Sequence record: MW286157.1
Direction: 5' to 3' (one strand)
Length of the DNA stretch: 64,000 bases
DNA from: Escherichia phage vB_EcoM-BECP11
Positions within the stretch are counted from its first letter, which is position 1; each line of letters opens with the position of its first letter. Below the pieces are notes generated by a model. That model saw only the letters and a program-made list of their open reading frames with translations, ran no database searches and was not told where the DNA came from. The position numbers and the translations under genes are program-made. This document shows, one piece after another, positions 60,219 through 64,000 of the stretch.

Positions 60219-60449
60219 TTAAAAGCTTTCTTCTACTTCATCGTCTGAATCTTCTAATTCAGCTCTTTTTCCTGCCAAAGCATCTCTGACTGAGATGTCA
60301 TCAGTATCTTTTAATTCAGTTTCTTTAACTCTTTTCTTATAATAAGCTTCAAGTTCTTCTAAACCTTCTATCGTTTGGCAAGAGGCAATTTTACCCATAA
60401 ATTCATCAATAGAAGCTTCATAAAGAAATTGTTTAAATTCTAGTAACAT
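60219..60449 (-). CDS. hypothetical acidic protein (76 aa), in the position of T4 uvsW.1
   Basis: GGAG RBS after hairpin 60463-60474, then ATG at 60449 (the track start is an upstream TTG). Confidence 0.5.
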   Translation of the reverse strand: MLLEFKQFLYEASIDEFMGKIASCQTIEGLEELEAYYKKRVKETELKDTDDISVRDALAGKRAELEDSDDEVEESF

Positions 60450-60462
60450 CTTTTTCTCCAAA

Positions 60463-60474: not shown

Positions 60475-61986
60475 TTATAAATTAACTGTTTTCATTACGT
60501 AATTAAATTTTTCATCTGCGTAGCGCTGAATACGATCAATGCCGTGTTTTAAAAGATAGTTCAAATGAACATATTTCTTTTTCGTATTAGCAGATTTTGG
60601 CTTAACACCACAATCATCTATGAGGTCCCAGACTGTTGCTATTGTCTTAGAACCATGCTTACGTAATACACGACCGATTGTTTGTAATACAATGATTTTT
60701 GATTTAACACCGTGCGCTAAAACAACGTGATGCAGATTTTTAACTGAAATACCAGTAGAAAATACACCATAACTAGCTACTATAATTATTCCTTTACCAT
60801 TTTCAGCTAAGGTTTTCATTATATTGCGGGTTTCGGTATCAACTTCCCCTGATACGTAATAAACTTTATCGTATTCATTTTTAATTAAATCGAAAATAGC
60901 TTTACCATGCGATACATGTTTAAACATGACAAAAGCGTTTTCATCTTTTTGCGCAAGTTTAATAGCTAATTTAGCGATCCATTTATTTCTTTTACTGAGC
61001 CCAGTAATAATTTTTATTTCTTCTTGGTAAGTTTTTCCCTTTAATTTGGTAGTGAATTCATCGGGATAGCGAAGAAAAATACTATTAATTTTTAGCTCAG
61101 TTACTTGTCCATCTTCCATTAATTTAGAAGTCGTTACTGGCTTAAATATTTCACCAAACATTCCAACATACTGCATGATATTGGCTTTGCCATCACGTAA
61201 TGAACCAGATAGACCAAATTTGAACATGCAGTTATTTAAACCTGATATGATAGATGAAATACTTTTTCCTGTAGCAAGATGGCATTCATCATTCATCATC
61301 ATTCCAAACTGTGAGAACCATTCTTTTGGCTGTTTTACTACAGTTTGCCATGTACCAACAATGACTGGTGCATCATTTTTATATTTATCATCTTTTGATG
61401 CTCCGCCACCAATTTTCTTTATCATTGCATGACTGAATAAACGATAGTCAACGAAGTCATCAGCCATCTGAGTTGTTAGAGCAGTTGTTGGAACAATGAT
61501 AAGAATTTTACCTTCATAATTTTCCAAATAATAACGTGCAAGCAAAGCTTGAATTAAAGATTTACCTGCGGATGTTGGAAGATTAAGAATTCTACGACGA
61601 TTAACTAATCCTTCGAACACTGCATCTTTTTGATACCAGTGTGGTTCAATTCTTTTATTTCCTGAATAGATTTCTAATTTAGAAAGCCATTCATCAAAAT
61701 CTTTTCTTGATAATTCTTCTTTTTCGTTAATTTGTGGGTCAATCCAGGCTTTATAGCCAAAGTTATCACAGAACTTTTTAATTTGCCCGACTAAGCCGAA
61801 TGGAAGAAGACGATTATAATCTAAAAGACGGATTCGTCCATCCCAGTGGCCATATTTGTATTTCGGATTAAAACGATACCCATCAGCTTCAAAGCTAAAG
61901 AAATCACGGAGTTCATGAAATGTACTTTCTTCACAATCAATTCTCACGTGACTAAAATCATAAAAATGTACTTTAATGTCAGTCAT
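60475..61986 (-). CDS. uvsW: UvsW DNA/RNA helicase (503 aa)
   Basis: SF2 helicase motifs LNLPTSAGKS (Walker A) and DECH box MMNDECHLATG; near-identical to T4 UvsW as recalled. Confidence 0.95.
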   Translation of the reverse strand: MTDIKVHFYDFSHVRIDCEESTFHELRDFFSFEADGYRFNPKYKYGHWDGRIRLLDYNRLLPFGLVGQIKKFCDNFGYKAWIDPQINEKEELSRKDFDEWLSKLEIYSGNKRIEPHWYQKDAVFEGLVNRRRILNLPTSAGKSLIQALLARYYLENYEGKILIIVPTTALTTQMADDFVDYRLFSHAMIKKIGGGASKDDKYKNDAPVIVGTWQTVVKQPKEWFSQFGMMMNDECHLATGKSISSIISGLNNCMFKFGLSGSLRDGKANIMQYVGMFGEIFKPVTTSKLMEDGQVTELKINSIFLRYPDEFTTKLKGKTYQEEIKIITGLSKRNKWIAKLAIKLAQKDENAFVMFKHVSHGKAIFDLIKNEYDKVYYVSGEVDTETRNIMKTLAENGKGIIIVASYGVFSTGISVKNLHHVVLAHGVKSKIIVLQTIGRVLRKHGSKTIATVWDLIDDCGVKPKSANTKKKYVHLNYLLKHGIDRIQRYADEKFNYVMKTVNL

Positions 61987-62015
61987 GTCTAAATACCATG
62001 TAATAAATATATCTA

Positions 62016-62023
62016 TATTTATA
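62016..62023 (-). promoter_or_regulatory. late promoter (TATAAATA on minus strand) for uvsW
   Basis: plus-strand TATTTATA about 30 nt upstream of the uvsW start. Confidence 0.5.
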
Positions 62024-62036
62024 CTGAGGAAATATT

Positions 62037-62717
62037 ATGATAGATAAAGATTATATTGCAGAGCTGAAGGCTCTTGATGATAATAAAGAAGCTAAAGCTA
62101 AATTAGCTGAATATGCTGAACAGTTTGGTATAAAGGTCAAAAAGAATAAATCTTTTGATAATATCGTTGTTGATATTGAAGAAGCCCTCCAGAAGCTCGC
62201 TAGTGAACCTATGCCAGAGACTGATGGGTTATCTATTAAAGACTTAATTGATGCTGCTGATGCTGCAGAGGGATTAAAATATGACGATGAAGAAGTTAAT
62301 CCAGAAGCAGCACTTCTGATTGATTCTCCAGTTAAATCTGATATTAAAATTGAAGTGGTAGAAACGGATAAAATTCCTGAAAATACTGATGTTTTGATTG
62401 AAGACACTCCTTTTGTTGAAGAAAAGTTTGAACAAGCTATAGCTGAGATTATTGAATCTGAAAAGCCGTCTGTATTTACTCTTCCGGAAAACTTTAGCCC
62501 GAATCTTCAATTATTGGGGAAAAATCCAGGATTCTGTACGGTTCCTTGGTGGATTTATCAATGGATTGCTGAAACTCCTGATTGGAAATCTCATCCAACT
62601 AGTTTTGAACACGCGTCAGCACACCAAACTTTGTTTAGCTTAATTTATTACATTAATCGCGACGGATCAGTTTTAATTCGTGAAACACGCAATTCTTCTT
62701 TCGTAACATTAAAATAA
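62037..62717 (+). CDS. inh: putative Inh (prohead protease inhibitor, 226 aa); assigned by position and size only
   Basis: 226-aa acidic protein between uvsW and hoc, where I recall T4 inh lying; RBS GAGGAAATATT. Confidence 0.5.
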   Translation: MIDKDYIAELKALDDNKEAKAKLAEYAEQFGIKVKKNKSFDNIVVDIEEALQKLASEPMPETDGLSIKDLIDAADAAEGLKYDDEEVNPEAALLIDSPVKSDIKIEVVETDKIPENTDVLIEDTPFVEEKFEQAIAEIIESEKPSVFTLPENFSPNLQLLGKNPGFCTVPWWIYQWIAETPDWKSHPTSFEHASAHQTLFSLIYYINRDGSVLIRETRNSSFVTLK

Positions 62718-62726
62718 GGATAACTT

Positions 62727-64000
62727 ATGGCTTTTACAGTTGATATAACTCCTAAAACACCGACAGGGGTTATTGATGAAACCAAGCAGTTTACTGCTGC
62801 ACCCAGTGGTGAAACTGGAGGTGGAACTATTACTTATGCTTGGAGTGTAGATAATGCTCCACAAGATGGGTCTGAAGCAACTTTTGATTATGTATTAAAA
62901 GGTCCTGCTGGTCAAAAGACTATTAAAGTTGTTGCAACAAATACAGTTCCAGAATCTGAAGCTGAAACAGCAGAAGCTACTACAACTATCACAGTCAAAA
63001 ACAAAACTCAGACAACTACATTGGCAGTAACTCCCAATAGTCCCGCTGCTGGAGTAATCGGAACAGCTGTTAAATTTACTGCTGCCTTAGCTTCGCAGCC
63101 ATCAGGTGCATCTGCTACGTATCAATGGTACGTTGACGATTCTCCTGTAGACGAAGCGACTTCTGCTACATTTAATTACACTCCTGCCGCCAGCGGAGTT
63201 AAAAAAATCAAGTGTGTAGCTCAAGTAACCGCGACAAATTATGATGAAAAAACCGTTACTTCGAATGAAGTATCACTGACTGTTAATAAAAAGACACAGA
63301 CAACTACATTGGCAGTAACTCCTAATAGTCCTCCAGCAGGAGTAATTGGAACCCCAGTTCAATTTACTGCTACCTTAGCTTCTCAACCTGATGGAGCGTC
63401 TGCTACATATAAATGGTATGTAGATGATTCTCAAGTTGGTGGAGAAACTAACTCTACATTTAGCTATACTCCAACTACAAGTGGGGTAAAAAGAATTAAA
63501 TGCGTAGCCCAAGTAACAGCAGAAAATTACAATGAAAAGGAAGTTACTTCGAATGAAGTATCACTGACTGTTAATAAAAAGACAATGAATCCACAGGTTA
63601 CATTGACTCCTCCTTCTATTAACGTTCAGCAAGATGCTTCGGCTACATTTACTGCTAATGTCACTGATGCTCCAGAAGAAGCGCAAATTACTTATTCATG
63701 GAAGAAAGATTCTTCTCCTGTAGAAGGGTCAACTAACGTATATACTGTTGATACCTCATCTGTTGGAAGTCAAACTATTGAAGTTACTGCTGTCGTTACA
63801 GCAACTGACTATGATAGCAAAACAGTTAAAACAACAGGTCAAGTTCAGGTAACTGATAAAGTTGCTCCGGAACCAGAAGGTGAATTGCCTTATGTTCATC
63901 CTCTTCCACATCGTACTTCAGCTTATATCTGGTGCGGTTGGTGGGTTATGGATGAAATCCAAAAAATGACTGAAGAAGGTAAAGATTGGAAAACTGAAGA
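62727..64000 (+). CDS. hoc: Hoc outer capsid protein with tandem Ig-like domains; 3' end outside window
   Basis: MAFTVDITPKTPTG... followed by repeated ~95-aa Ig-like units (TLAVTPNSP.AGVIGT...WYVDDS...SLTVNKK); ORF open to window end. Confidence 0.8.
   Translation, partial: MAFTVDITPKTPTGVIDETKQFTAAPSGETGGGTITYAWSVDNAPQDGSEATFDYVLKGPAGQKTIKVVATNTVPESEAETAEATTTITVKNKTQTTTLAVTPNSPAAGVIGTAVKFTAALASQPSGASATYQWYVDDSPVDEATSATFNYTPAASGVKKIKCVAQVTATNYDEKTVTSNEVSLTVNKKTQTTTLAVTPNSPPAGVIGTPVQFTATLASQPDGASATYKWYVDDSQVGGETNSTFSYTPTTSGVKRIKCVAQVTAENYNEKEVTSNEVSLTVNKKTMNPQVTLTPPSINVQQDASATFTANVTDAPEEAQITYSWKKDSSPVEGSTNVYTVDTSSVGSQTIEVTAVVTATDYDSKTVKTTGQVQVTDKVAPEPEGELPYVHPLPHRTSAYIWCGWWVMDEIQKMTEEGKDWKTE
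63006..63581 (+). repeat. tandem direct repeat of about 288 bp inside hoc (duplicated Ig-like domain)
   Basis: unit boundaries share identical stretches AGACAACTACATTGGCAGTAACTCC and GTTACTTCGAATGAAGTATCACTGACTGTTAATAAAAAGACA; unit interiors are more diverged. Confidence 0.75.

Follow-up and report, generated by a model that had tools for sequence, protein, structure and literature searches.

Phage T4's Hoc protein is a 180-Å fibre of three Ig domains and a C-domain, and one monomer is held by each gp23* hexamer through that C-domain (PMC10385173). Its homologues carry anything from one to ten Ig domains (PMC10385173), and domain-number variants have been published for PhiPNJ-9 with two Ig domains, for Klebsiella phage PMBT63 with one Ig domain more than T4, and for Serratia phage Muldoon with ten (PMC11853027, PMC13435897, PMC10385173). 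Binding of mucin glycans (fucosylated MUC2) by Hoc Ig domains rests on experiments for three phages only, T4, PhiPNJ-6 and PhiPNJ-9 (PMC9271167, PMC11150434, PMC11853027); in the two-Ig Hoc of PhiPNJ-9, from which domain 3 is missing, the site of MUC2 binding is displaced (PMC11853027).

Using a combination of homology searches, structure prediction and comparison of repeat units across related phages, our work here describes a hoc gene with one Ig-like domain more than T4 and places the origin of that domain. The reading frame that starts at the ATG at 62727 of the window (the whole 64,000-nucleotide stretch of DNA analysed here), and whose plus-strand translation stays open to the window end, is hoc, as the preliminary description had supposed. 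Positions 62727-64000 are 100% identical to Shigella phage Sf23 (MF158046 / NC_054941; Tequatrovirus), whose record labels the gene 'Hoc-like head decoration', and T4 Hoc chains (5vf3_Z and four other entries) were matched by phmmer against PDB sequences at E = 1.7e-222. The locus is likewise that of T4: the gene order uvsW - inh - hoc - 24.3 - 24.2 - rnlB - gene 24 is common to the annotated regions of Sf23 and T4, with the uvsW and inh reading frames lying upstream in the window. T4 Hoc (376 aa; PDB 5VF3, 8T1X, 8T9R), encoded between inh and 24.3, shares with Sf23 Hoc a pI of 4.74, inside the acidic range of about 4-5 given for this protein (PMC10385173). The complete Sf23 gene measures 1419 bp and encodes 472 aa, against 1131 bp and 376 aa in both T4 and RB51, a difference of 288 nt (96 aa) that equals exactly one repeat unit. 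The coordinates of the features are collected in Table 1.

Table 1. Features of the hoc locus, by position in the window
Feature	Position	Strand	Remarks
inh ORF	62037-62717		upstream of hoc
Shine-Dalgarno-like AAGGA	62716-62720	+	read from sequence; overlaps inh stop codon (62715-62717); 6 nt 5' of hoc ATG
hoc CDS, 5' part	62727-64000	+	1274 nt of 1419 = aa 1-424 of 472; cut by window end
Ig-like domain 1 (aa 1-93)	62727-63005	+	AF2 beta-sandwich, pLDDT about 87-94; 279/279 nt = RB51 domain 1
Repeat unit 1 = Ig-like domain 2, type A (aa 94-189)	63006-63293	+	'extra' domain relative to T4; clade A
Identical 5' ends of units, 26 nt	63009-63034 = 63297-63322	+	
Identical 3' ends of units, 39 nt	63255-63293 = 63543-63581	+	
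Repeat unit 2 = Ig-like domain 3, type B (aa 190-285)	63294-63581	+	T4 domain 2 orthologue; clade B; Pfam PKD at 195-267
Ig-like domain 4 (aa 286-381)	63582-63869	+	T4 domain 3 orthologue (T4 Hoc 190-285); Pfam Ig_3 / I-set at 289-356; AF2 strands 290-376
hoc 3' part inside window	63870-64000	+	full Sf23 gene matches T4 Hoc 286-376 almost identically; remainder past window end

The surroundings of the gene show several further traits. Between uvsW and hoc, the plus strand is free of exact matches to the T4 late-promoter box (TATAAATA); the minus strand has one at 62016-62023, some 30 nt upstream of where uvsW starts, and the 11 boxes counted across the whole window are not above the 9.5 expected by chance. 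An Rfam scan of 61900-64000 returned no matches. In T4, inh and uvsW are separated by segE, a homing endonuclease gene, in the interval corresponding to 61987-62036 of the window; segE is absent from Sf23 and RB51, which have only a short intergenic gap at its position. The uvsW region on the minus strand (60219-60461 and 60475-61986) consists of a 503-aa reading frame followed by a separate 80-aa one (UvsW.1), and the Sf23 record, too, gives uvsW as a helicase without its C-terminus plus a separate 'UvsW C-terminus' piece.

The repeat inside hoc was found by a direct-repeat search of the find_repeats type (62991-63278 / 63279-63566, 288 nt, in frame, 76%) and by TRF (63009-63584, period 288, 2.0 copies, 79% matches, score 733). 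Set in codon register, it resolves into the two units of Table 1, hereafter U2 (the first unit, type A) and U3 (the second, type B), which are identical at 225 of 288 nucleotides (78%). The tandem repeat at 63006-63581 and its long identical boundary stretches, as previously described, are real, but the protein identity of the units is 80% (77/96) and not the roughly 85% that had been given.

Modelled with AlphaFold2 (mean pLDDT 88.4), the 424 residues encoded in the window fold into beta-sandwiches at about residues 1-91, 94-187, 190-283 and 288-376, which confirms the four Ig-like domains ahead of the C-domain; the C-domain has low pLDDT because it is truncated by the window end. The best Foldseek matches in the PDB are themselves four-Ig fragments (Sidekick Ig1-4, Dscam1 Ig1-4 and ICAM-5 D1-D4), and the Pfam matches in the protein are PKD, PKD_4 and Ig_3. 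Comparison of the full gene with T4 bears out the claim of one Ig-like domain more than T4 Hoc. The phmmer alignment falls into two segments, with Sf23 residues 1-113 aligned to T4 1-113 and residues 189-472 to T4 93-376, so that Sf23 Hoc equals T4 Hoc plus one extra copy, a paralogue, of T4 domain 2. T4 domains 1, 2 and 3 accordingly correspond to Sf23 domains 1, 3 and 4: U3 is aligned to T4 Hoc 93-189, the middle domain of T4 being itself of type B, and the addition in Sf23 is a 96-aa type A Ig domain between T4 domains 1 and 2. The capsid-binding C-domain, homologous to T4 Hoc from about 281 to 376, has almost no substitutions over the last ~95 residues of Sf23 Hoc, of which the window holds those up to residue 424. 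Since this domain is almost that of T4, we infer the same capsid decoration, in which Sf23 Hoc would bind the centre of gp23 hexamers as T4 Hoc does.

To place the two units among their relatives, middle units were cut from 117 Hoc proteins (114 cluster representatives plus Sf23, T4 and RB51) and grouped by average-linkage clustering into three types, A, B and C, classes that rest on mosaic sequences, visibly so in cases such as the T4 unit (in its 3' part) and unit 1 of teqskov. The lengths of Hoc across related isolates, a comparison suggested at the outset, fall into classes of 376, 472 and 568 aa. By unit type, 61 of the 117 proteins have the architecture B, 25 have A-B and 16 have A; the rest are A-B-C (4), A-B-B (3), A-C (3), C (3), B-C (1) and A-x (1), and reversed unit order was seen in none of the 117. 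T4 is thereby B only, and RB32 and RB14 are A only. When the unit-core DNA of 19 phages is placed in a neighbour-joining tree, drawn without an outgroup root, the units sort by position. All first units, together with the single units of RB32, RB14, Sf22, Shf125875 and one IMG/VR contig, form clade A; clade B unites second units with the lone units of T4, of RB51 and of a further IMG/VR contig; and the last units of pSs-1, ECP2301 and UGKSEcP1 form clade C. No outgroup has a recognisable A/B/C-type domain by which this tree could be rooted, the nearest other IMG/VR clade included, so that more than one ancestral copy number would fit. The distinction between A and B resides in the central third of the unit: all 15 of 15 diagnostic sites lie in its nt 93-207, and no fixed A/B difference occurs at the unit ends in any phage compared. 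The amino-acid differences between U2 and U3 of Sf23 are mostly in predicted loops. Domain-1 sequences of different types are combined with the unit architectures in shuffled fashion, and this shows frequent recombination.

How common the two-unit form is can be gauged from 60 of 678 matching phage records, taken at even spacing and representing database records and not a random sample of nature. Among these 60, 17 contain the contiguous 1274-nt two-unit form and 31 the 986-nt one-unit form, while 3 more have two units with a divergent domain 1; the two-unit form is thus found in about one third of the sampled Tequatrovirus-like genomes, and a few have three units. The 1419-bp architecture occurs in JY01, SfPhi01, NiC89 and ECML-363 as well as in PP01, phiD1, pSs-1, G28, teqskov, NBG2, ECP2301 and AlbertHofmann/Bas47. 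The 472-aa Hoc of the last eight is encoded by the same 1419-bp gene with two ordered units, at 87-100% DNA identity to Sf23; in pSs-1 and ECP2301 the second unit is of type C, as opposed to B in Sf23, and the identical ends of the Sf23 units (26 and 39 nt) are longer than those in most other 472-aa alleles. The 568-aa forms, exemplified by UGKSEcP1 and UGKSEcP2, combine the backbone and unit family of Sf23 with three middle units (A-B-C) and hence five Ig-like domains.

Database annotation of the gene is uneven. The records of SfPhi01 and vB_EcoM-UFV05/06/09/10/11 split the two-unit hoc region into two or more CDS ('x2', 'hypothetical protein x2'), the region in SfPhi01 measuring 1275 instead of 1274 nt; these split calls look like frameshifts or sequencing errors in the repeat region. 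One 472-aa Hoc cluster (P0012, 58 member sequences) bears the NCBI name 'endonuclease [Shigella sonnei]' and other Hoc clusters bear 'PKD domain-containing protein [Escherichia coli]', misleading names that stem from phage contigs inside bacterial assemblies.

Related genes also extend beyond the genus. AlbertHofmann/Bas47 and Shigella phage Shf125875, both classed as Mosigvirus, have a Tequatrovirus-type hoc whose Ig part is about 90% identical in nucleotides to that of Sf23; in RB69 itself the match is confined to the final ~128 nt of the query, which fall in the C-domain region and are 97.7% identical. The pattern of these matches suggests that the Ig region of hoc has been exchanged across genus boundaries and that the DNA of the capsid-binding end is very strongly conserved. 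Another Tevenvirinae clade in IMG/VR has Hoc forms of 282 aa, 377 aa and 472/471 aa. There the extra 95-aa domain duplicates the last Ig domain, which the middle domains resemble; because it copies the last Ig domain and not domain 2, it represents an independent event of gain or loss.

The preliminary description had read the repeat as a recent in-frame duplication, and an in-frame 288-nt tandem repeat with identical boundary stretches is indeed what would be expected if domain 2 had been duplicated de novo, and recently, in the lineage of Sf23. Such an event should, however, yield copies that are nearly identical at synonymous sites and each other's closest relatives, and neither is what we find. 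U2 and U3 differ at 63 of 288 nucleotides, with 29 codons changed only synonymously and 19 non-synonymously, and by the Nei-Gojobori method their dS is 0.95 (dN = 0.12, dN/dS about 0.13) over the whole unit and 1.96 (dN = 0.16) over its core. This is more than twice the dS of about 0.38-0.43 between orthologous hoc segments of Sf23 and T4, a pair that is among the more divergent in the sample. Nor is Sf23 peculiar in this respect, adjacent units being 75-83% identical in DNA in all 11 multi-unit alleles for which DNA was obtained. The copies cluster by position and not by genome: both Sf23 units have nearer relatives in other phages than in each other, with 95-100% identity between U2 and first units elsewhere and with the RB51 unit as the sister of U3, and the form with two units is too frequent among related genomes to fit a novelty of one lineage. 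Both the excess of dS and the grouping by position place the A/B split before the divergence of the phages compared and refute a recent duplication, which we consider very improbable. An error in the Sf23 assembly, with the repeat collapsed or expanded, is less credible still and may be practically dismissed; repeats of such size are open to short-read mis-assembly, but units that differ at 22% of positions are easy to assemble, and the same 1419-bp architecture, in identical or near-identical genes, recurs in many independently sequenced isolates and in metagenome contigs. What the sequence comparisons favour, with good confidence, is that the extra domain is an old and widespread variant, an anciently diverged type A paralogue lying just upstream of the T4-type B copy. 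A dN/dS around 0.1 indicates that both Sf23 units are under purifying selection and have been kept as working domains.

The identical ends of U2 and U3, which had hinted at recency, appear better explained by constraint together with exchange between the units. The 3' end of unit B in Sf23 equals that of its own unit A, yet it differs synonymously at several sites from the B units of RB51 and G28, which are the nearest orthologues. This pattern is consistent with local gene conversion, which would account for the identical boundaries, and the stretch at 63255-63293 is a likely site of unequal crossover or gene conversion.

Three near-identical hoc backbones bear on how copy number changes: A-B in Sf23, A only in a phage contig of an E. 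coli assembly (GCA_033877295.1) and B only in RB51. The contig carries Sf23 hoc minus unit B, with 276 of 279 nt of domain 1, 288 of 288 nt of the unit (as U2) and all 564 of the remaining 564 nt identical to Sf23. RB51 hoc is Sf23 hoc minus most of unit A, its single unit matching U2 over the first ~50 nt and U3 over the remainder. An assignment of those first 50 nt to type A was considered and dropped, as there are no fixed A/B differences outside nt 93-207, and for the same reason the RB51/Sf23 difference can be read in either direction. Together, the one-unit and two-unit backbones point to gain or loss of 288 nt driven by recombination. The simplest reading of the RB51 and GCA_033877295.1 forms would be in-frame deletion of 288 nt by unequal crossover between the shared unit ends; alternatively, patch recombination with another two-unit phage could have brought unit A or B into Sf23. 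Under either loss or patch-recombination gain, no new duplication is needed.

How the ordered units came to stand side by side allows more than one account. A single illegitimate or unequal recombination could have joined a diverged A-type (RB32-like) allele of domain 2 to a B-type (T4-like) one, with homologous recombination then spreading the product. Single-unit A, B and C alleles are all found in nature, the multi-unit forms all share the same junction phase (...LTVNKK/TQTTTL..., the slash marking the junction), which fits one founding event, and the shuffling of domain-1 types speaks for rampant recombination. By itself, however, such a joining leaves the conserved order of A before B before C, maintained through the three-unit forms, unexplained; the single-unit A and B forms on a near-Sf23 backbone are more simply taken as deletion products, and the present data fit ancient duplication followed by divergence equally well. 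We regard this origin as unlikely. We posit, tentatively and with rather more doubt than conviction, that the middle of Tequatrovirus Hoc is an ancient ordered A-B-C array of Ig cassettes whose copy number is continually switched by unequal homologous recombination, T4 (B only) and RB32/RB14 (A only) being deletion derivatives. The coexistence of one-, two- and three-unit forms might then be kept by selection on fibre length or loop repertoire, for example in mucus or cell-surface binding or in antibody escape.

In mechanistic terms, the middle of Hoc in Tequatrovirus-like phages consists of one, two or three ordered 96-aa units (A, B, C), a polymorphism that is probably of long standing. The sequence shared by the unit ends may supply the homology for recombination, and the in-frame addition or removal of exactly 288 nt would result from unequal crossover or from patch recombination when phages co-infect. 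For the virion, the expected result is an Sf23 Hoc fibre about one Ig module longer, by roughly 45 Å on top of the 180 Å of T4, that would present the domain-2 loops in a second version as well, with the acidic charge unchanged.

That Hoc proteins vary in domain number is already in the literature, and the Sf23 allele is deposited, annotated and common, the 472-aa form being present in hundreds of related genomes; our literature search found no explicit description of a four-Ig Tequatrovirus Hoc or of the ordered A/B/C domain-2 units. The Hoc proteins of PhiPNJ-9, PMBT63 and Muldoon resemble that of Sf23 in setting an Ig string of varying number on a conserved capsid-binding C-domain, but they belong to other lineages, in which other domains were gained or lost. 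That domain number may tune mucus binding, as the preliminary description proposed, is a hypothesis. The three-Ig Hoc of T4 is a poor default for Tequatrovirus-like phages used in therapy or display, about one third of which have a fibre lengthened by a second domain-2 module that is unlike the first. A repeat whose length varies by recombination is relevant both to the engineering of Hoc display and to any comparison of mucus adherence between isolates. The near-isogenic set that nature provides, with A-B in Sf23, B in RB51 and A in the A-only phage, offers clean material on how the number and type of domains relate to adherence.
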